Below are positions 24,092 through 45,204 of a DNA stretch of 60,849 bases, piece after piece. The notes under the pieces are model-generated. The model ran no database searches and was not told where the DNA came from. It saw only the letters and a program-made list of their open reading frames with translations. Position numbers and translations under genes: made by a program. This stretch comes from Acidobacteriota bacterium (GTDB taxonomy: Bacteria; Acidobacteriota; Polarisedimenticolia; Gp22-AA2). The stretch lies in contig JBGPLZ010000003.1 of assembly GCA_041486695.1 (NCBI GenBank), positions 1 to 60,849 on the forward strand, written 5' to 3'. Each line of letters starts with the position of its first letter. Within the stretch, counting starts at the first letter, position 1.

Positions 24092-24326
24092 CGCTTGTAT
24101 CAGACGGGCCAGCGGGAGGTCAATGCGCTGCCGTGCGGAGGCTCCCCGGCGTGAGGCGCCGCGGCGACCGCGCCCGGCGCGGATGGGGACCGGGCGGCGT
24201 CCGGGAGACCGCCTGGTCCGCGCTGCACGGGTGGTGGGGTTGGCCGCGCCCTCGACACAGGCTTGCAGACTCTGGCCAAGCGCTGGCGCCGCGGTGTCGT
24301 TCGCAGCCTGGTTGGGCTGCCATGGG

Positions 24327-24487
24327 GTGAGGCGCAGAGCCCTGCCTTCGGCGGACCGTGCGAGACCGAGCGACCAGGGCCCCACCGCGCGCTTCACAGC
24401 GCGGTGGGTGGGAGCGAGGCGAGCCGAGGGGAGGCTCGCGCAGCGAGCCGGACCCGTGTCCGCCGAAGGCAGGGCTCTGCGCCTCAC
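24327..24487. repeat. 161-bp palindromic element E1: perfect 30-bp terminal inverted repeats around a 101-nt GC-rich core containing two internal hairpins
   Basis: Arm 24327-24356 GTGAGGCGCAGAGCCCTGCCTTCGGCGGAC is the exact reverse complement of 24458-24487. Inner hairpins: CCCACCGCGC/GCGCGGTGGG (24381-24408) and GCGAGCC/GGCTCGC (24419-24439). Lies between the divergent fhcB and MCP genes. Confidence 0.9.
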
Positions 24488-24607
24488 GCTGGGGAGGTCT
24501 CCGCAGCCCGCGGGCGGCATGGCGGTGGCGGAAAAGGGGACATATATTCAGATTTCGTCGGAGTCTGTCCGGTGTCCGGGGTCCCGGCGCCGGGGGGAGC
24601 GGGGACG

Positions 24608-35043: not shown

Positions 35044-36258
35044 ATGCCGGAGTTCATCGCCAAGATCGGCACCAGCGACGGGACGGTGATGGAGCGCGCC
35101 TTCACCGCCGATTCCGAGCAGGCCCTGATCGTCGATCTGAAGGCGCGCGACTATCACATCTTCGGCATCCGGAAGAAGAGCGGGCTGCTGGGGTTGCTGC
35201 CGGGGCGTGGCGCCGGACGCGGCGTGTCGATGAAGGAGTTCCTGGTCTTCAACCAGGAGCTGGCGGCGCTCATCCGCGCGGGCCTGCCGATCCTGGCCGG
35301 GCTCGACATCCTGATCGAGCGGCGCAAGAATCAGATCTTCAAGAAAGCGCTGACCGACGTGCGCGATCGGGTCCGGGGCGGCGAGGCGCTGTCGGAGGCT
35401 TTCGAGGCGCAGGGCGGCATGTTCCCGAAGATCTACTCGTCGACCCTGGCTTCCGGAGAGCGCTCCGGCGAAGTGGCGTCGGTGCTGCAGCGGTACATCA
35501 CCTATCAGAAGACCATGATGGGCCTGCAGCGCAAGATCCTCTCCGCCCTGATCTATCCGGCGTTTCTCTTCCTGATGTCGTTCGGGATCGTCATCGTCCT
35601 GATCACCTATGTCATCCCCAAGTTCAAGGAGTTCTATGCCGACTTCGGCGCCGACCTGCCGCTGATCACCAAGGTACTGGTCGGCGCGTCGGAGTTCTTC
35701 ACGACGTACCTCCTTGCCGTCCTCCTGGCGATTGTCGTCGCCGTCCTGGGGGTGCGAGCCTGGGCCCGCACCGCGGCGGGGCGGCTGGCGATCGACCGGT
35801 TCAAGATCCGGGTGCCGCTGATCGGCGCCATCTGGCAGCGCTTCGCGGTCTCCCGCTTCCTCCGGACCCTGGGGACCCTGACCGCCGGGGGAATCCCCGC
35901 GGTCACCGCGCTCGGCATCTCGGCCCGCGCCGTCGGCAATCAGGAATTCGAGCGCCAGCTGATCGACGTCGAGCGCAAGGTGCGCGAGGGGAGCAGCCTC
36001 TGGATGTCGCTGGAGGAGACCGGCCTGTTCAGCGACATCGCCATCGAGATGACCAAGGTCGGGGAATCGACGGGGGCGCTGCAGGAGATGCTGGCGCACG
36101 CCGCCGACTTCTACGACGAGGAGATCGAGACGCGCCTCGCCACCATCATCGCCCTGCTCGAGCCGGTGATGCTGATCGGCATGGGGTTCGTCGTCGGCGC
36201 GATGCTCCTGGCGATCTACCTGCCGTTGTTGCGCTCCTACACGCAGTCGAACTTCTAG
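35044..36258 (+). CDS. gspF: GspF/PilC-family platform protein
   Basis: Two T2SSF repeats: LVFNQELAALIRAGLPIL..L and FLRTLGTLTAGGIPAVTAL, plus three TM segments and C-terminal LAIYLPLL. Confidence 0.9.
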   Translation: MPEFIAKIGTSDGTVMERAFTADSEQALIVDLKARDYHIFGIRKKSGLLGLLPGRGAGRGVSMKEFLVFNQELAALIRAGLPILAGLDILIERRKNQIFKKALTDVRDRVRGGEALSEAFEAQGGMFPKIYSSTLASGERSGEVASVLQRYITYQKTMMGLQRKILSALIYPAFLFLMSFGIVIVLITYVIPKFKEFYADFGADLPLITKVLVGASEFFTTYLLAVLLAIVVAVLGVRAWARTAAGRLAIDRFKIRVPLIGAIWQRFAVSRFLRTLGTLTAGGIPAVTALGISARAVGNQEFERQLIDVERKVREGSSLWMSLEETGLFSDIAIEMTKVGESTGALQEMLAHAADFYDEEIETRLATIIALLEPVMLIGMGFVVGAMLLAIYLPLLRSYTQSNF

Positions 36259-36267
36259 AGGATCCCG

Positions 36268-37926
36268 ATGGCTGCCGCGCCGAAGAAAGACAGCCCGACC
36301 CGGCCACCGGCCGTTCCCGACGCGGCGGTGGCCGAGGGCGCGATCGGCAGTGAGGAGCCCCAGGCGCAGCGCATCGCGGCGCGGCTGGGCATCCCGTACG
36401 TCGACCTGGTCGACTTCCCGATCAATCAGGATCTGTTCCGCGCCATCCCGGTCGATCTGATGTTCCGCTACAACTTCGTGCCGGCCAGGGAGGAGAACGG
36501 CCGGCTGGTGGTCGTGCTCTCCGACCCGTCCGACGTCCTGATGGTGGACGAGCTCGAAGTCCTGCTCGGCCGGCCGCTGACCGTCTGCGTCGGGTCCAAG
36601 ACCGCGATCAACGAAGTCTTGAAGAAGTCGGAGTCCAGCCAGCGGGTCCTCGACGCCGCCACCGAGGAGTTCAAGATCCAGGTGGTCCGCGACGACGACG
36701 AGGAGGGCGAGGAGGCGCTGTCGATCGACAAGCTGACCTCGGCCGACTCGCCGATCATCAAGCTGGTTGACTCGACCGTCTTCAACGCCCTGCAGCGCCG
36801 CGCCTCCGACATCCACATCGAGACGCGGGAGCGCGAGGTGGTGATCAAGTACCGCGTCGACGGCGTGCTCTACAACGCCATGGACCCGATCGACAAACGC
36901 TTTCACTCCTCGATCATCTCGCGCATCAAGGTCATGTCCGAGCTCGACATCGCCGAGAAACGGGTGCCGCAGGACGGCCGCTTCAAGCTGAAGATCAAGG
37001 GGCGGACGATCGACTTCCGCGTCTCGATCATGCCCTCGGTGCACGGCGAGGACGCGGTCATCCGCATCCTGGACAAGGAGTCGGTCAACGAGGAGTTCGC
37101 CGAGCTGCGCCTGGACATCCTCGGCTTCACGCCGGAGGATCTCAAGAAGCTGCGCAAGTTCATCCGCGAGCCGTACGGCATGGTGCTGGTCACCGGCCCG
37201 ACCGGCTCCGGAAAGACCACGACCCTCTACGCGGCGCTGTCGGAGATCCGCTCCAACGAAGACAAGATCGTCACCATCGAGGACCCCGTCGAGTACCAGC
37301 TCACGGGGATCACGCAGATCCCGGTGAATGAGAAGAAGGGGCTGACCTTCGCCCGCGGACTGCGATCGATCCTAAGGCACGACCCCGACAAGATCATGGT
37401 CGGAGAGATCCGCGACGAGGAGACGGCGCAGATCGCCATCCAGTCGGCCCTGACCGGCCACCTGGTCTTCACGACGGTGCACGCCAACAACGTCGTCGAC
37501 GTCCTCGGCCGCTTCCTGAACATGAAGGTCGAGCCGTACAACTTCGTCTCGGCCCTTAACTGCGTGGTGGCACAGCGCCTGGTGCGCATCATCTGCCCCA
37601 AGTGCCGCTACGCCGTGCACTACACGGCCGCCCAGCTCCAGGAGTCGGGGATCGACGGCAAGAAGTACGCGGCCCACGTTTTCTACGAGGGGCGCGGCTG
37701 CATCGACTGCAACGGCACCGGTTACATGGGCCGGATGGCCATCGCCGAGATCCTGGACATGAGCGACCGGATCCGGGAGCTGATCCTGGAGCGTAAGTCG
37801 GCCGCCGAGATCAAGCGGGCCGCGCGCGAGGAAGGGATGACCTTCATGCGCGAGGCGGCGGTGCAGCGGGTCCTCGAGGGGAAGACCACGCTGCGCGAGA
37901 TCAACAAGGTGACGTTCGTCGAGTGA
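36268..37926 (+). CDS. gspE: GspE/PilB-family secretion ATPase with an N-terminal T2SSE_N domain
   Basis: Walker A GPTGSGKTTT, Asp box, Walker B IMVGEIRD, His box TGHLVFTTVHAN, tetracysteine CPKC..C..CNGTGY. Confidence 0.95.
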   Translation: MAAAPKKDSPTRPPAVPDAAVAEGAIGSEEPQAQRIAARLGIPYVDLVDFPINQDLFRAIPVDLMFRYNFVPAREENGRLVVVLSDPSDVLMVDELEVLLGRPLTVCVGSKTAINEVLKKSESSQRVLDAATEEFKIQVVRDDDEEGEEALSIDKLTSADSPIIKLVDSTVFNALQRRASDIHIETREREVVIKYRVDGVLYNAMDPIDKRFHSSIISRIKVMSELDIAEKRVPQDGRFKLKIKGRTIDFRVSIMPSVHGEDAVIRILDKESVNEEFAELRLDILGFTPEDLKKLRKFIREPYGMVLVTGPTGSGKTTTLYAALSEIRSNEDKIVTIEDPVEYQLTGITQIPVNEKKGLTFARGLRSILRHDPDKIMVGEIRDEETAQIAIQSALTGHLVFTTVHANNVVDVLGRFLNMKVEPYNFVSALNCVVAQRLVRIICPKCRYAVHYTAAQLQESGIDGKKYAAHVFYEGRGCIDCNGTGYMGRMAIAEILDMSDRIRELILERKSAAEIKRAAREEGMTFMREAAVQRVLEGKTTLREINKVTFVE

Positions 37927-37951
37927 GGGCGTCAACCGCCCGGGAGCGCGC

Positions 37952-38971
37952 GTGGCGTTCGTGGACAAGCTGAAGGATCTGGCGGCGATGATCGAGGGGC
38001 GTGGTCTCGAGCCGCCCCGTCTGCCGTGCTCTCCGGACGTGGCGGTGGAGATCGCCCCGGATCGGATCACCGCCGTCCGTCTCGGCGCCGACCGGAAGAG
38101 CAAGACGATCCAGGTCCGCTCGGTCGCCTCGCGCGACATCCCGGAGGGGGCCATCGAGATCGCGCTCGCCCGCCCGAACATCGTGGCCCCGGAGCCGGTC
38201 GTCTCCGCCCTCGCCGAGGTCCTGGGCGCCGTGGGCGCGGCGGAGCAGAGGCTCTCGGTCCTTCTCCCCGATCATGTGGCGCGCGTGGCGCTTTTGGCGT
38301 TCGCGACCCTGCCGCGCACCCGCCGCGAGCTCATCGAGCTGGTGCGCTTCCGCATGGCCAAGTCGCTGCCGTTCAAGCTCGACGAGGCGGTCATGGACAT
38401 GACGGTCCTCGGCGGGGGCAGCGGCCCCGCGGGCGCCTCGGTGCTGGCGACCTTCATGCACCGCGCGGTGCTCGAGCAGTACGAGAACCTGTTCACCGCC
38501 GCGGGGTACTGGCCGGGCCTGGTCGGGATCTCGACCTTCGAGATCTACAATCTCTTCCGCCACACGCTGGAGGCGCGCCGCCTGCCGGACAAGGACACCC
38601 TGCTTCTCAACGTCACGCCGCACTATCTGTCGCTGCTGATCTTCCGCGGTGACGATCTGATCTTCTACCGCTGCAAGCCGCACCAGACGGGGAGCGAGGA
38701 GCTGGTCAAGGGAGTGCGGCGGGAGATTTACACCTCGCTGGCCTTCTACCAGGAGAAGCTCCTGGGACGGGGCGTCGGCTGCGCGGCGCTGCGCGCCGTC
38801 TCGCTACCTCCCGGACCGCTGCGGGACGGCATCGGCGAGGAGATCGGATGCGCCGTCCTTCTGCTCGACCTGCTCCGGGTGGTGCCGCTCGGCGAGGCGG
38901 TGACGCTGGATGCGGAGGGCGCGTCCCTCGCGGCGCCGGCCGCCGGGGCGATCTTCGGGAGGCGCGCGTGA
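37952..38971 (+). CDS. pilM: PilM-like actin-fold assembly protein
   Basis: Size and position directly upstream of PilN/PilO-like genes. VAVEIAPDRITAVRL.., LPFKLDEAVMDM, NVTPHYLSLLIF. Confidence 0.75.
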   Translation: MAFVDKLKDLAAMIEGRGLEPPRLPCSPDVAVEIAPDRITAVRLGADRKSKTIQVRSVASRDIPEGAIEIALARPNIVAPEPVVSALAEVLGAVGAAEQRLSVLLPDHVARVALLAFATLPRTRRELIELVRFRMAKSLPFKLDEAVMDMTVLGGGSGPAGASVLATFMHRAVLEQYENLFTAAGYWPGLVGISTFEIYNLFRHTLEARRLPDKDTLLLNVTPHYLSLLIFRGDDLIFYRCKPHQTGSEELVKGVRREIYTSLAFYQEKLLGRGVGCAALRAVSLPPGPLRDGIGEEIGCAVLLLDLLRVVPLGEAVTLDAEGASLAAPAAGAIFGRRA

Positions 38972-40341
38972 AGCCTCTCCCCACCAACCTGGCGAGCCGG
39001 CCGTTTCGCAACAACGCCGTGCTCGGCTCGGTCCTGGGCAGCATCGCGGCGCTCCTCGTGCTGGCGACCGTCTTCAACCTCACCCTCTTCCTGCGCCACG
39101 GCAGCAGCTACGCCGAGATGAATCACGAGCAGGCGAGCGACAGGGAGAGGCTGGCGAAGGTGGACCTGGAGGAGGCGAGGCTGGCCCGGGAGATCCAGAA
39201 GCGCGACTTCCGCCGCCTCCAGGCGCGGGAGCGGATCGCCGGGGAGCTGATTCTGAGGCACGCCTTCTCCTGGACCCTGCTGTTCAACAAGCTGGAGACG
39301 GTGGTGCCGGCCGAGGTGATGATGACCGCCATCCGTCCGAACATCACCGCGGACGCGATCGTCGTCCGGGTCGACGGGGTCGCCAAGAGCTACTTCGCCT
39401 TCCTCGACCTGCAGGACAAGCTGCTGGCGAACCAGGTGTTCGCCCGGATCTCCCCGATCAGCGAGCGCAAGCTCAATCCCAGCCGCCCCGAAATCACCTT
39501 CGCCCTCAATTTCGGCTACCTGCCCAAGGTGGCGGCTCCGGCCGCGTTGCTCGCGGCGGGTGCCGCGCCGGGCGCGGCCGCAGGCAGTACCTCCCCGGCA
39601 TCCCCGGGTGCGGCCGCAGGCGCTCCTTCCCCGGCATCCCCGGGCAGGGCCGCGGGCACTCCGACCCCGCGTGTGGCGGCCCCGGCTCCCGTGCCGGCCT
39701 CGGCGCCGGCGCTCGGGATCGTCGGGCGTGACGGACAGTTGCGCACCGCGACCGCCCTGTCCCGGATGTTCGCGGCTCCGGGGTCGATCTATCTGCCGCC
39801 CGGCGCTCGCCCTTCCGCCCCGGCGGCACCCAAGCAGGCCGGTCCGAAGCCCCAAAAGCCGCGGGCGGCCCCCGCCGGAACTCCGCCCGCCGCGACGGCC
39901 GCTCCGCAGCCCTCGGCGCGGCTCCTCCAGGTGCCGGTGCGTGGTGAGCCGGGTCTGCCGCCGGGCCTCCTCCCGGGGGCTTTGCCTCCGAAGGTCAGGA
40001 TGGCGGCCGAGGTCGGGCGGGGCGTCGTCCCGGCCGATCGGCTCGATCTCCCCATGCGGTTCGCCGATCGTCCGGTGGGTGAGATCTACGCTGCGCTCGC
40101 GCAGGCTCACGGGGTTCGTTTCGACCTCGATCCCGGCGTCGATCCCCGGGCCCGCATCTCGGCCAGCCTGTCGGGAAAGACGCTCGCCGATGCGATCGCC
40201 ATCGTGGCGCGCGCCGCGGGCCACCGGGTCCATCGCGAGTCCGACGGCGTCTACAGGGTGGTCCTCCCGGCCGGAGGCGCGGCGATCGCCGACAAGCCGC
40301 TGCAGGAGGAGACTCTGTTCCCGGCGGAAGGGCGGCCATGA
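38968..40341 (+). CDS. PilN-like bitopic protein fused through a long Pro/Ala-rich linker to a C-terminal STN/secretin-N0-like domain
   Basis: GTGA overlap with the pilM stop. NLASRPFRNN + TM VLGSVLGSIAALLVLATVF + coiled coil (PilN pattern). Linker of about 130 aa. C-terminus LDLPMRFADRPVGEIYAALAQAHGVRFDLDPGV..ISASLSGKTLADAIAIVARAAG. Confidence 0.65.
   Translation: MKPLPTNLASRPFRNNAVLGSVLGSIAALLVLATVFNLTLFLRHGSSYAEMNHEQASDRERLAKVDLEEARLAREIQKRDFRRLQARERIAGELILRHAFSWTLLFNKLETVVPAEVMMTAIRPNITADAIVVRVDGVAKSYFAFLDLQDKLLANQVFARISPISERKLNPSRPEITFALNFGYLPKVAAPAALLAAGAAPGAAAGSTSPASPGAAAGAPSPASPGRAAGTPTPRVAAPAPVPASAPALGIVGRDGQLRTATALSRMFAAPGSIYLPPGARPSAPAAPKQAGPKPQKPRAAPAGTPPAATAAPQPSARLLQVPVRGEPGLPPGLLPGALPPKVRMAAEVGRGVVPADRLDLPMRFADRPVGEIYAALAQAHGVRFDLDPGVDPRARISASLSGKTLADAIAIVARAAGHRVHRESDGVYRVVLPAGGAAIADKPLQEETLFPAEGRP
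39574..39645 (+). repeat. Tandem 36-bp (12-aa) coding repeat in the PilN-like linker
   Basis: GCGGCCGCAGGCAGTACCTCCCCGGCATCCCCGGGT followed by GCGGCCGCAGGCGCTCCTTCCCCGGCATCCCCGGGC (AAAGSTSPASPG / AAAGAPSPASPG). A third, degenerate unit follows. Confidence 0.85.
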
Positions 40342-40961
40342 GCGCCCGGACGCTTCGTCCGCGTTTCGACCTGCGCCAGGATCTCTGGAAGGCCGTCGCG
40401 GTCTTCGGGCTGCTCGCGCTGGTCAATCTGGGCTTTTATCTGTTCCTCAACCTGCCGCGACTGCGGGCCTTCGGCGCCCTGCGGGACAGGCGCGACGACG
40501 TCCGGCGGACGCTGATCGCGGCCAAGAATCGCTGCGACACGATGCTCGACCTGGTGACGCGGTACGATGAGGACATGGTGAGGCTCGACGACTTCTTCAG
40601 CAACCGGATCGGCACCCAGGCCGAGCGGATGACGAGCATCCAGAAGGAGATTCGGGCGATCGCCGGCGAGTTTCACATCGACCCGGAGTCGATCGACTTC
40701 AACCTCACCGAGGTCGAGAGCAGCGACCTGACGCAGTTCCAGATCACCATCCCGTTGCTCGGCGGCTATCCGAACCTGAGGCAGTTCCTCAACCGGATCG
40801 AGGCGGCCGAGCACATCTTCATCGTCGACAGCGTCGAGCTGGCCGGGTCGCGCGAGGGCGGGGTGATGCTGAGCCTGACGATCAAGATTTCGACCTATTT
40901 CAGCACCCCGGAGCGTGAATCCGGGCACGGCCGGGCGAAGCCCGTGCCCCAGGGAGCCTGA
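40338..40961 (+). CDS. pilO: PilO/GspM-like bitopic assembly protein
   Basis: ATGA overlap. TM AVAVFGLLALVNLGFYLFL, coiled coil, C-terminal ferredoxin-like part FQITIPLLGGYPNLRQFLNRIE..IFIVDSVEL. Confidence 0.7.
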   Translation: MSARTLRPRFDLRQDLWKAVAVFGLLALVNLGFYLFLNLPRLRAFGALRDRRDDVRRTLIAAKNRCDTMLDLVTRYDEDMVRLDDFFSNRIGTQAERMTSIQKEIRAIAGEFHIDPESIDFNLTEVESSDLTQFQITIPLLGGYPNLRQFLNRIEAAEHIFIVDSVELAGSREGGVMLSLTIKISTYFSTPERESGHGRAKPVPQGA

Positions 40962-41645: not shown

Positions 41646-44039
41646 ATGGCGTGGACGGAGCGAGCCAAGATCGGACCCGGCGGGGCGCGGGCGAGGCAGG
41701 CGGCGGTGGTCGTCGTCTCACTGCTGCTGCTCTCCTGCGCCACCTCCAGCTCCTACCGGCACGGCACCAGGCAGATGAATGCGGGGGAGTACGACAGCGC
41801 CGTGGTGAATTTCTCCCGCGCCCTGACCGGGCAACCCGAAAGCACCCGGATCAAGTCGGCGCTGGTGCGCGCCAGGATGAAGGCCGCCGAGGACCATTTC
41901 ATGAAGGGGCAGGCCTATGCCAGGGCCGGCGACCTCGAGTCGTCCATCAGCGAGTACCAGCAGACGGTCTACCTCAACCCGTCGCACCAGTACGCGGCCA
42001 ACGAGCTGCAGAAGGCCCTGGCCGAGTGGCAGAAGCGCCAGAAACAGGATATGTCCGACATCGAGAAGCTCAAGAAGAAGGTGAAGGCCGAGCCGGGGCG
42101 GGTGGCGCCGCGCCTCAATCCCGCCTCCAACATCCCGATCGTCCTGCGCTTCAAGGACGAGACGATCCGCAAGATCTATGATGCGCTGTCGAAGGCCTCC
42201 GGCATCAATTTCATCTATGACGACCGGGTCGACCTCAACAAGAAGATCTCGATCGATCTGGCCGACGTGACCTTCGAGCGCGCCCTCGACACGCTGATGG
42301 CCATGAACAAGCATTTCTTCAAGATCTGGGACGACAACACGATCCTGATCGCCGACGACAACGCGCAGAAGCACAAGGAGCTCGACGACCTGGTCATCCA
42401 GACCTTTTACCTGAGCAACGCCGACGTCAAGGACGTGCAGGTCCTGCTGCGGACGCTCCTCGATGCCCGGCAGCTGGCGCAGAACGACCGCCTCAACTCG
42501 ATCACGATCCGCGATACCCCCGAAAGGGTGCAGGTCGCCGCCAAGATCATCGATGCGAACGATAAGGCGAAGTCCGAGCTCGTGGTCGACGTCGAGCTGC
42601 TCGAGATCAACCGCAACATGCTGCAGAACCTCGGCATCGACCTGAGCGGCGCCAGCGGCGGCAACGGCAAGCAGATCGGCATCAACTATGGCGGCACCGG
42701 CGGCGTGCCGCTCAACAACCTGGGCATCTTGAAGCAGGCGGGCTCCTGGCTCCTGGGCCCGGTGCCCGGCGTGGTGGTCAATTTCCTGAAGACCAACGCC
42801 GACGCGCAGGTGATCGCCAAGCCCCAAGTGAGAGTCAGCGAGGGGGCCAAGGCGACGGTGCGGATCGGCGATCGGATCCCGATCCCGACCACCACCTTCA
42901 ACGCCGCTCCGACCGTGGGAGGGACGGTGGGCGTGCCGATCACCTCGTTCACCTACCAGAACGTCGGCATCAACATCGATATCGAGCCCCGCGTCCACCA
43001 CAACAAGGAGATCACCCTCAAGCTGCACGTCGAGGTGTCGTCGCTGGCGGGGCAGGTGTCGGCGGGCGGGGGGCTGACCCAGCCGATCATCGGCACCCGC
43101 GAGATCGACTCGACCATCCGTCTCAAGGATAACGAGACGAACCTGCTCGCCGGCCTGATCCGGTCGGAAGAGCGCAGGTCGTTGAGCGGCGTGCCGGGCC
43201 TGTCGGACATCCCCGTGCTGCGGCGCCTGTTCGGCACCACGGAGACGACGGTGCAGTCGACCGACATCGTCCTGACGCTCACGCCGCACATCCTGCGCGT
43301 GCCCGACATCACCGAGGAGGATCTCCGGCCGCTCTGGGTCGGAACGGAGCAGGACATCGGCCTCAAGGGTGCGAGCAAGCAAAGCGCCTTCGGACCATCG
43401 CCGTTCGAGGCGGAGGAGGAGCCGGTGGCGCAGGAGCCGACGGCCCCGGTCGTCGAGGAGGCGGCCCCGGGCTCCACGATCTTCGGGGCCGACACAGCCA
43501 CGCCCGAGCCGACCCCGACGCCCGCCCCGAGCCCGACCCCGAAGCCGCCGCCGAACGTGGGCGGCTCCGGGCCGGCGGCGGCTTCGACGCCCGCGAAGTC
43601 GCCGAGCAGCGAGCCGGCCGGCCCCGCGGTGGTCTCGATCAAACCGTCCAATCCGACCGTCCCGCTCGGGGAGGACTTCACCGTCAGCGTCGAGATCAAC
43701 GGTGCCAGAGGAGTCGGCAGCGTGCCGTTCCACCTCGGTTTCGATCCGACGGCGATCGAGTTCGCCAATTTCACCAATACGTCGCCGTTCCTGGGGAGTG
43801 ACGGGTCGGGGGTCTTCATCCTGGCGACGGTCGGCAGCGGCGGCCGGGAGGTGATCGTGGGCCTGTCGCGCCAGGGGAGCCGTCCCGGGATCGACGGCCA
43901 GGGGTCATTGATCCAGCTGACCTTCCGTCCGAAGCGGCCGGGGACGACGACCTTGAACTTCACCGATCTCTCGGTCCTCGACCCGCAGGCGCAGATCCTG
44001 CCGTCGCAGAACCTGGGAGCGACGATCGTGATCCAGTAG
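41646..44039 (+). CDS. gspD: Secretin (GspD/PilQ family) with lipoprotein-type signal, TPR-like N-terminus, N0+N1 modules, secretin core, and a Pro-rich linker to a C-terminal cohesin-like domain
   Basis: VVSLLLLSC (lipobox-like). N0: IVLRFKDETIRKIYDALSKASGINFIY. N1: VIQTFYLSNADVKDVQVLLRTLL. Core: AKPQVRVSEGAKATVRIGDRIPIP..GINIDIEPRVH..LLAGLIRSEE..VPGLSDIPVLRRLFG. C-terminus: VVSIKPSNPTVPLGEDFTVSVEINGARGVGSVPFHLGFDP. Confidence 0.85.
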   Translation: MAWTERAKIGPGGARARQAAVVVVSLLLLSCATSSSYRHGTRQMNAGEYDSAVVNFSRALTGQPESTRIKSALVRARMKAAEDHFMKGQAYARAGDLESSISEYQQTVYLNPSHQYAANELQKALAEWQKRQKQDMSDIEKLKKKVKAEPGRVAPRLNPASNIPIVLRFKDETIRKIYDALSKASGINFIYDDRVDLNKKISIDLADVTFERALDTLMAMNKHFFKIWDDNTILIADDNAQKHKELDDLVIQTFYLSNADVKDVQVLLRTLLDARQLAQNDRLNSITIRDTPERVQVAAKIIDANDKAKSELVVDVELLEINRNMLQNLGIDLSGASGGNGKQIGINYGGTGGVPLNNLGILKQAGSWLLGPVPGVVVNFLKTNADAQVIAKPQVRVSEGAKATVRIGDRIPIPTTTFNAAPTVGGTVGVPITSFTYQNVGINIDIEPRVHHNKEITLKLHVEVSSLAGQVSAGGGLTQPIIGTREIDSTIRLKDNETNLLAGLIRSEERRSLSGVPGLSDIPVLRRLFGTTETTVQSTDIVLTLTPHILRVPDITEEDLRPLWVGTEQDIGLKGASKQSAFGPSPFEAEEEPVAQEPTAPVVEEAAPGSTIFGADTATPEPTPTPAPSPTPKPPPNVGGSGPAAASTPAKSPSSEPAGPAVVSIKPSNPTVPLGEDFTVSVEINGARGVGSVPFHLGFDPTAIEFANFTNTSPFLGSDGSGVFILATVGSGGREVIVGLSRQGSRPGIDGQGSLIQLTFRPKRPGTTTLNFTDLSVLDPQAQILPSQNLGATIVIQ

Positions 44040-44515
44040 TGACGGCGAGGCGCGCGGACCGGGGCTGGCGCGGCATGACGCTCATCGAGCTTCTGGTCGT
44101 CGTGGCGGTTCTGCTGGTCCTCACGGCGGTGGTGGTGCCGACGGTGAAGTTCGCGGTCAAAAGGCAGAAGGAGCTCGAGCTGCGGCGCGCGCTGCGGGTG
44201 GTCCGCAAGGGGATCGACGACTACAAGAAGCTGTGCGACGCCGGAGTGATCCAGAAGACCGGCGTCGACTCCGAGTGCTACCCGGAGGAGCTCGAGGTGC
44301 TGGTGAAAGGGGTCGACAAGACCGGCGCCCTGGGGCAGAAGGTGAAATTCCTGAGAAAGATCCCGCTCGACCCGATGACCAACGGCTACGAGTGGGGGAC
44401 CCGCTCATACCAGGACGAGGCGGATTCCGATTCGTGGGGCCGGCAGAACGTCTACGACATCTATACCACCGCCGGGGGAAAGGCCCTCGACGGCACGAAA
44501 TACAAGGATTGGTGA
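44039..44515 (+). CDS. gspG: GspG-like major pseudopilin (prepilin-type N-terminus)
   Basis: Leader MTARRADRGWRG / MTLIELLVVVAVLLVL. C-terminal pattern IPLDPM..YDIYTTAGGKALDGTKYKDW. Confidence 0.85.
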   Translation: MTARRADRGWRGMTLIELLVVVAVLLVLTAVVVPTVKFAVKRQKELELRRALRVVRKGIDDYKKLCDAGVIQKTGVDSECYPEELEVLVKGVDKTGALGQKVKFLRKIPLDPMTNGYEWGTRSYQDEADSDSWGRQNVYDIYTTAGGKALDGTKYKDW

Positions 44516-45099
44516 TGGCTAGTGTCCTGAGTCGGAAATCCCTTGCCCATTTCGACGGCCCTCGACGGCCCCGGCTTCGTTGGGCCTCCTCGGAATGGGT
44601 CCACCATGCCTGCGTCGGCCCGCCTCGCCGGGCCCGCCGATGGCTCGCCGGACTGGGCAAGGGATTTCCGACTCAGGACACTTGGAGACGGCGCGGACGG
44701 GACCAGGCGGCACGGCGCGACGGCGGTTTCACGCTGATCGAGTTGTTGATCGTCATCACCATCATCGGCATCATCGCCGCCATCGCCGTCGGGCAATATC
44801 AGAAGACGCCGCTCAAGGCCAAGGAGGCGGTCCTCAAGGAGGATCTCTTCGTTTTGCGCGACGTCATCGACCAGTACTTCGCCGACAAGGGGAAGTATCC
44901 CGAAAGCCTGCAGGCGCTGGCCGACGACGGTTACATGCGGAAGATCCCGGTCGACCCGTTCACGGGATCCGATTCGACCTGGGAGACGGTGCAGGCGGAG
45001 GCCTCGGACGACGATAAGGATAGCGGCGGCGGGGTCATCGACGTCCACAGCGGCGCGACCGGGGCCGCGCTCGACGGGAGCCGCTACAGCGATTGGTGA
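44515..45099 (+). CDS. gspG: Second GspG-like pseudopilin; its leader-coding region carries the in-frame 162-bp element E2, so start and functionality are uncertain
   Basis: Mature part GFTLIELLIVITIIGIIAAIAV..IPVDPFTG..ALDGSRYSDW. The only in-frame ATG/GTG/TTG upstream of G/FTLIELL is the ATG at 44515, giving a 70-aa leader. Confidence 0.7.
   Translation: MASVLSRKSLAHFDGPRRPRLRWASSEWVHHACVGPPRRARRWLAGLGKGFPTQDTWRRRGRDQAARRDGGFTLIELLIVITIIGIIAAIAVGQYQKTPLKAKEAVLKEDLFVLRDVIDQYFADKGKYPESLQALADDGYMRKIPVDPFTGSDSTWETVQAEASDDDKDSGGGVIDVHSGATGAALDGSRYSDW
44521..44682. repeat. 162-bp palindromic element E2: perfect 29-bp terminal inverted repeats around a 104-nt GC-rich core, inserted in frame in a pseudopilin leader
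   Basis: 44521-44549 AGTGTCCTGAGTCGGAAATCCCTTGCCCA is the exact reverse complement of 44654-44682. The length is 54 codons with no stop in the pilin frame. Confidence 0.9.
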
Positions 45100-45204
45100 G
45101 CGAGGGTCGACCGAAGGGAGTCAGTGGAATGACACGGCCGTCCGGCAACAAGTTGTGGTGGCGCCCGTCGGCCGGGGGTATATTCAAAGGATAGGAGACA
45201 AGCA

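Follow-up and report, generated by a model that had tools for sequence, protein, structure and literature searches.

An IS630-type MITE inserted in frame in the leader of a GspG-like pseudopilin gene of a Polarisedimenticolia bacterium and most likely tolerated there

The DNA analysed here, referred to as the window, is a stretch of 60,849 nucleotides that groups with the Polarisedimenticolia ('gp22') lineage of the Acidobacteriota. It contains an operon of the type IV filament or T2SS-like kind, with genes encoding GspF, GspE, PilM-like and PilO/GspM-like proteins, a secretin and two consecutive pseudopilins, p1 and p2. The genes of interest are located as follows.

35044-40961, further upstream of the secretin gene: genes for T2SSF, the T2SSE ATPase, a PilM-like and a PilO/GspM-like protein
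41646-44039, forward strand: secretin gene of the same operon
44039-44515, forward strand: p1, the upstream pseudopilin gene (158 aa), with a stop codon 5 nt before the base of a long hairpin
44515-45099, forward strand: p2, a GspG-like pseudopilin gene, 194 aa with the insertion described below (PF07963, 35.7 bits; orthologues named GspG by JGI/NCBI)

The TGA stop codon of p1 (44513-44515) overlaps the ATG of p2 (44515-44517) in the sequence TGATG, and this ATG is the sole canonical in-frame start upstream of the G/FTLIELL motif of p2. No in-frame ATG, GTG or TTG was found within or after the inserted element and before the motif, and in-frame CTG codons are present only at 44527 and 44653, in both cases deep within the hairpin stem. 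The deduced p2 protein contains a class III signal peptide, in which a hydrophilic leader with a terminal Gly precedes F(+1), E(+5) and a hydrophobic helix (...RRDGG/FTLIELLIVITIIGIIAAIAV), and the N-methylation motif detected by PF07963 covers residues 67-91. Cleavage is predicted after Gly71 (codon 44725-44727). A preceding interpretation made from the sequence alone, termed the sequence-only reading in the following, had counted leaders of 70 and 16 aa with and without the element; since the canonical G(-1)/F(+1)/E(+5) rule puts cleavage after the second Gly, these lengths were corrected to 71 and 17 aa. Exact look-ups of the typed-in p1 and p2 sequences gave no match.

Directly behind the start codon, the p2 gene is interrupted by a palindromic element, for which the following features were delimited.

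44519-44522, forward strand: CTAG at the left junction, consisting of C, the TA of the target and the first G of the element
44520-44683, forward strand: complete MITE insertion, comprising TA, the 160-bp element and TT (a decayed TA), as defined by alignment with a second copy on contig L066 and by a 162-nt gap in orthologues
44521-44549, forward strand: left terminal inverted repeat, a perfect 29-nt arm whose first 17-22 nt or so represent the IS630-family terminus TAGTGTCCTGAGTCGGA
44550-44653, forward strand: interior of the MITE, imperfectly self-complementary and without coding capacity of its own
44654-44682, forward strand: right terminal inverted repeat, a perfect 29-nt arm
44682-44683, forward strand: right target dinucleotide, TT instead of TA, followed by the G of the original CTAG, as deduced from L066 and full-length elements

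The two arms had been described as exact reverse complements, and all 29 positions do pair; the length of 162 bp, or 54 codons, was likewise confirmed and is free of stop codons in frame. The 29-mer of the arm had no match in 100 shuffles of the window and, apart from the partner arm, occupies a single site in the window itself. The inverted repeat reaches 37 nt once mismatches are allowed, and pairing along the whole element amounts to 65 of 82 possible pairs, with small bulges inward of the arms. Accordingly, the 162 nt fold as one long hairpin, with a minimum free energy of -115 kcal/mol for the 164-nt element and a z-score of -6.2, relative to dinucleotide shuffles, for the folded 221-nt stretch around it. 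A search of Rfam yielded no family match, the sole hit in the region 44000-45200 being AS-traI, which lies outside the element and with 21 bits falls well short of the gathering score of 99 (E = 0.43). Beyond its terminus the 160-bp element is without similarity to a transposase, and neither a transposase gene nor a further copy of the element was found in the 60.8 kb of the window.

The secretin-p1-p2 arrangement is conserved in 60 Acidobacteriota loci. Besides the product of the window itself (P0001), a protein search identified the p2 orthologues P0002 and P0003, which show 89% and 87% amino acid identity and are both 140 aa long, that is, 194 minus 54. The respective contigs agree with the window in gene order and in the TGATG junction, the leaders of the two proteins read MARERSGPETAARRDGG/F and MSGRRCDTEGSARRDGG/F, and alignment of the DNA revealed a single clean gap of 162 nt, with about 90% identity otherwise. 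In the window, the p1 stop codon and the conserved Gly codon are separated by 209 nt, or by 47 nt after subtraction of 162, compared with 14-163 nt in relatives, and a BLASTN comparison of the element with 62 syntenic loci of relatives detected no similarity. As judged from these alignments, the 162 bp in p2 are a real insertion. The proposal of an in-frame element in an otherwise normal short prepilin leader is thereby supported, and the empty site that was to be sought in orthologous pseudopilin genes is present in P0002 and P0003. Other close p2 orthologues (P0034, P0052 and P0063; 156-160 aa) have Ala/Arg/Gly-rich leaders of 33-37 aa, for instance MSEAGAARCGARSGATARHGTWRLGPARRGAGRPERG/F, which provides further evidence that leader length varies freely in the p2 gene.

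When JGI metagenome contigs were scanned with a 20-mer of the arm, a second copy of the element was detected on L066, another Polarisedimenticolia contig. The two copies share 95% identity over 164 nt, from C-TAGTGTCC to GGACACT, and diverge abruptly at both ends. In L066 the element is positioned after the stop codon of a 375-aa gene, and six orthologous contigs (88-98.6% DNA identity) have this site empty. The empty sites read ...CGC-TAG-GAGCC..., the filled one ...CGC-TA-[GTGTCC...GGACAC]-TA-G..., and homology ends exactly at TAG. The contig comparison shows L066 to be a second filled/empty polymorphism, at the strain level and with TA on both sides; on the evidence of two copies, each with empty orthologous sites, the element is mobile. 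The other 20-mer match of the metagenome scan (L067) is a lone one inside a coding region and was taken as chance. Exact scans of representative genomes (one per species) with the arm 20-mer and a core 22-mer gave no match, and a six-frame translated query of the element against 5.8 billion proteins returned only the window's own protein, so that no other called ORF runs through a copy. Altogether, the representative-genome, JGI metagenome and six-frame protein searches found two copies of this exact subfamily. In L066 (1-210), the gene downstream of the MITE encodes a response regulator, and all the empty-site relatives (L068-L073) have an AMMECR1 gene there; the L066 MITE is therefore the site of a rearrangement or else of a chimeric assembly over the repeat, the latter implying a third copy.

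The outer 17-mer of the element, TAGTGTCCTGAGTCGGA, occurs at more than 118 sites in many phyla, the hosts among the matches listed including Kribbella, Streptomyces, Pseudonocardia, Reinekea, Burkholderiales, Terriglobia, Planctomycetes, Binatota, Krumholzibacteriia and Rokubacteria. Pairing of forward and reverse 17-mer matches yielded distinct size classes, with a short class of 159-167 bp represented by about 35 loci and a long class of 1113-1182 bp by 11 loci among the matches listed. The long elements encode a protein of approximately 365 aa that matches the IS630 transposase model NF033545 (NCBIfam) with 272 bits against a cutoff of 100 and that additionally contains Pfam DDE_3 and HTH domains; in these autonomous relatives, the equivalent of the right terminus encodes the transposase C-terminus ...ISDSGH. 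The short elements among the matches listed are 67-79% identical to the window element over the full length, the best same-size relatives being L088 from Krumholzibacteriia (79%) and L134 from Binatota (76%), and the interior likewise shows 67-79% identity to same-size MITEs of other phyla. Since its termini are shared with elements encoding an IS630 transposase and since it has full-length short relatives, the window element was assigned to the IS630 family of MITEs. This assignment, together with the second copy, substantiates the initial description as a MITE-like, hairpin-forming insertion.

The MITE family is overwhelmingly intergenic and often located just 5' of gene starts. Among the matches listed, the ORFs spanning the 49 short pairs of terminal inverted repeats in other genomes look spurious, and recognisable real genes start after the MITE in L102, L134 and L162. 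Neither these 49 pairs nor the six-frame peptide search revealed a family-wide preference for, or frequency within, ORFs. Consensus folding of 35 family members showed that the interior is too divergent to align and that paired changes are confined to the inner termini, where they are explained by co-evolution with the transposase and were not counted as evidence of a functional RNA.

The same IS630 terminus also bounds other kinds of elements. Mini-elements consisting of two termini only, 36-67 bp apart, were observed in L080, L119, L123, L127, L146, L148 and L164, a class of 266-267 bp in L083, L084, L087, L117, L149 and L169 (Reinekea spp., with L083 in Kribbella), and a class of 193 bp in L118 and L120 (Burkholderiales). 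The mini-elements and the larger, lineage-specific size classes suggest repeated independent miniaturisation. In nine full-length elements (L077, L078, L085, L147, L158, L163, L178, L183 and L187), the transposase frame enters the terminal repeat and is closed by a TAG that consists of the duplicated TA and the G of the CTAG target; the stop codon of the transposase is thus supplied by the insertion site.

All 11 long elements among the matches listed and the L066 copy are flanked by the pattern c/TA...TA/g. The flanks of the window copy, C-TA...TT-G, are one base off this family pattern, the complete junction reading ATGG-C-TA-[160 bp]-TT-G-GAGACGG. The sequence-only reading had seen no obvious target-site duplication; comparison with L066 and the full-length elements instead indicates that the TA in CTAG was duplicated and that the right copy now reads TT, the duplication in the window copy resting on one assumed substitution from TA to TT. 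The target before insertion was likely ATG GCT AGG AGA CGG (M A R R R ...), similar to the MARE... found in the nearest orthologue. The leader obtained earlier by conceptual excision remains valid as a short basic leader, but its beginning was likely MARRRR... rather than MAWRRR..., the change of the right TA to TT having presumably turned Arg into Trp; an empty or excised allele would join as ...ATGGCTAGGAGAC....

In the window, CTAG was observed at 10 sites (2358, 3679, 5441, 8538, 33640, 34225, 36255, 44519, 45386 and 45430), whereas about 171 are expected from base composition (approximately 17-fold fewer), and TA occurs 476 times versus about 1419 expected (approximately 3-fold fewer). 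A CTAG-specific element accordingly meets very few landing sites. Close relatives have no CTAG at the insertion position, so that the site became a target in the lineage of the window only. CTAG/TA is the target preference of IS630 according to Tenzen & Ohtsubo (1991), as cited in PMC2170065, and for the related ISY100 a TA duplication with occasional imperfect duplications in vitro has been described (PMC2170065).

These observations bear on the proposition that the inverted repeat is an assembly artefact, due to a chimeric or fold-back join, or else a REP/REPIN element moved by a RAYT transposase. Mis-assembly can yield long perfect inverted repeats, and the missing target-site duplication of the initial description would fit REPINs. 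An artefact, which the sequence-only reading had itself named as a case against its proposal, is ruled out by the same 164-nt sequence in the independent metagenome contig L066; a REP/REPIN element without target-site duplication is ruled out by the TA duplication in CTAG, seen in L066 and the full-length relatives, and by the IS630-type termini. Moreover, the element has exactly the same length as related MITEs from other phyla. The probability left to either version is negligible.

The insertion can be reconstructed as follows. An IS630-type DDE transposase, supplied in trans, would have cut and pasted the 160-bp non-autonomous element into the TA of the CTAG made by codons 2-3 of p2 (GCT AGG), with duplication of the TA. 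Two of the three frames of the terminus are closed by TAG and TGA, which leaves one fully open frame per orientation, both starting with SVLSRKSL; a CTAG phased xCT/AGx enters the terminus in its single open frame. This subfamily adds 162 = 3 x 54 bases, stop-free in either orientation, and the p2 ORF remains open. In other family members, the net length is not divisible by three. As any insertion of this subfamily at CTAG in this phase keeps the ORF, irrespective of orientation, the intact frame is weak evidence of selection.

The 54 added residues include 11 K/R versus 3 D/E and are non-hydrophobic, the highest Kyte-Doolittle value of a 19-residue window being -0.28 in the leader versus +2.98 in the pilin helix; they are predicted to respect the positive-inside topology. 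Prepilin leaders are hydrophilic, variable in length and cytoplasmic, and the prepilin peptidase removes them by cutting behind the last Gly (PMC10191384). The leader with the insert would stay cytoplasmic and would be removed by this peptidase after Gly71. Because the insert lies in the cytoplasmic leader, which is predicted to be cleaved off, and is basic and non-hydrophobic, the mature p2 protein is probably unchanged. We therefore favour, with a probability of about 0.88, the reading that an IS630-type MITE inserted in codons 2-3 of p2, that the frame was kept, that only the leader was changed and that the insertion is most likely tolerated, with the mature pseudopilin most likely unaltered. 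In-frame MITE fusions have been documented in bacteria (PMC10969869).

The RNA has to be considered as well, since the very stable stem of about 65 bp begins 4 nt past the p2 ATG. It would hinder free 30S initiation at p2, translation of which probably depends on re-initiation by ribosomes terminating on p1, and it may reduce p2 output or form an RNase III site. The insertion could even have inactivated p2, the stem blocking initiation or being cut by RNase III, or the 71-aa leader preventing SRP targeting or peptidase cleavage, so that p2 would be a young, undecayed pseudogene. A stem in this position could silence the gene, the open frame follows inevitably from the element's geometry and so does not prove function, the perfect arms suggest a recent event with little time for decay, and the paralogous pseudopilin p1 adjoins p2. 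This view is nevertheless regarded as unlikely because leaders are cytoplasmic and of variable length in this protein family (PMC10191384); leader biology thus favours tolerance over inactivation. Furthermore, the Acidobacteriota orthologues in L050 and L058 keep leaders of 47 and 50 aa with unrelated hairpins and without an alternative start, so that long structured leaders do persist in the p2 gene, and at the TGATG overlap, ribosomes coming from p1 may already have opened the foot of the stem, which would permit coupled re-initiation.

Hairpins between the p1 stop codon and the p2 cleavage motif were detected in the relatives L046, L047, L050, L058 and L059, and a weaker one in L048. Several of them have arms made of tandem 7-mers (8-mers in L059). 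The sole in-frame start in L050 and L058 lies upstream of the hairpin, and the L059 hairpin is intergenic. These hairpins, unrelated and highly significant (z-scores of -3.8 to -7.2), occur at the exact junction in 5 of 49 relatives, and 3 of 19 long hairpins in 703 kb fall at the p1/p2 junction. Such numbers, and a compensatory pair among the seven differences between the two MITE copies, could point to a hairpin recruited as a regulator that sets the p1:p2 ratio (by p1 mRNA stabilisation, p2 attenuation or strict coupling) or that acts as an excision on/off switch. This is considered improbable. The junction hairpins of relatives belong to repeat classes that in L046 and L050 also occupy the adjacent intergenic gaps, close relatives of the window are without any hairpin at the junction, and the other copies of the MITE family are scattered in intergenic DNA; paired terminus changes are expected from co-evolution with the transposase, and the window offers no nearby transposase to drive switching.

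The junction was also considered as a hot spot and rejected as such: hairpins are about 30-fold enriched there relative to all DNA but only about 3-fold relative to intergenic DNA, an excess that is estimated not to be significant. Since the same repeat classes fill the neighbouring gaps, the junction hairpins are read as tolerance and not as function, with repeats accumulating wherever they are tolerated and a cleavable leader being such a place. A broader idea is that across Acidobacteriota the 5' end of p2 repeatedly receives unrelated hairpin repeats, an IS630 MITE in the window and heptamer-repeat hairpins in Thermoanaerobaculia and others, which selection then retains, and that the RNA stem, placed between two translationally coupled genes and within a disposable leader, sets the p1:p2 ratio. 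It is viewed as improbable; if true, it would mean that parasitic hairpins were repeatedly exapted as an intra-operon expression valve.

In distant Acidobacteriota (Thermoanaerobaculia and others), hairpins are found in the gaps of the secretin-p1-p2 operon at the following positions.

L046: 8333-8434, 8891-8972 and 9368-9449
L047: 8130-8243
L048: 8795-8891
L050: 5924-6004, 8896-9024, 9454-9535 and 13807-13884
L059: 8903-9019

Their 7-mers include GGGAGGC, TAGTCGG, GATCGGG and GTTTCAG. Some of these hairpins lie inside the p2 leader frame, and they form a distinct repeat class that was not placed in a known family.

Among known systems, the Correia/NEMIS elements of Neisseria and the ERIC elements of enterobacteria are MITEs measuring about 100-160 bp; they have long inverted repeats, are transcribed together with genes and form RNA hairpins, and reports describe their processing by RNase III as well as an influence on mRNA stability. 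They serve as a model for the proposed RNA-level effects, whereas their sequences and hosts differ from those of the window element. RUP is a small non-autonomous element with IS630-matching termini, which inserts at TA with duplication and folds as a hairpin, and for which mobilisation in trans by an IS630 transposase has been proposed. The window element resembles RUP, which is listed among the MITEs (PMC10969869), and other IS630-derived bacterial MITEs in being a non-autonomous IS630 derivative. Its subfamily differs from RUP by an unrelated, GC-rich sequence of about 160 bp, by the stricter CTAG target of IS630 itself and by its hosts, which belong to soil phyla (Acidobacteriota, Actinomycetota, Binatota, Krumholzibacteriia and others), and the window copy is intragenic. 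With IS630 of Shigella sonnei and ISY100 the window family shares the transposase family NF033545, the TA duplication, the CTAG preference and the cut-and-paste mode, but the window element has no transposase gene and between its two termini contains only an unrelated interior of about 100 bp.

The Rickettsia palindromic elements are palindromes of about 150 bp that lie in frame in coding genes and are translated, apparently in a manner compatible with function (Ogata et al. 2000, as summarised in PMC10969869). The window copy is similar in that an in-frame palindrome would be translated as part of the host product; in contrast to the Rickettsia elements, the added peptide lies in a segment that is predicted to be cleaved off and not in the mature protein. 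Moreover, Rickettsia palindromic elements are mostly located inside ORFs and have no known transposase, whereas the window family is overwhelmingly intergenic and has an IS630-type parent. Because its other copies are intergenic and no other called protein contains the element, the window family is not of the Rickettsia type. Intragenic cases of ERIC, BOX and QMITE1 are called 'not unusual' in a review (PMC10969869). The IS630 MITE in p2 is consequently an instance of a known phenomenon and represents neither a new mechanism nor a new kind of system.

The locus provides a base-resolved natural example of a mobile element residing inside a gene without, on the favoured reading of a tolerated insertion, destroying it: the gene is kept open by the phase of the CTAG target, a length of 3n and a stop-free frame, and the extra peptide is placed in a leader that is probably discarded. 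Additionally, a previously unannotated MITE subfamily of about 160 bp has been defined, whose IS630 terminus and 67-79% of whose sequence are common to several soil phyla. It should be useful for the annotation of metagenome-assembled genomes, since such elements break assemblies and yield odd 'long-leader' gene calls.

A further palindromic element, unrelated to the MITE, is present at positions 24289-24525 of the window, where divergent ORFs have their 5' ends. Representative genomes gave no match to a 23-mer of its arm. The element contains a perfect 30-bp inverted repeat (24327-24356 and 24458-24487), the arms of which extend to 68 nt at 74% complementarity, and it folds with -184 kcal/mol and a z-score of -8.8.
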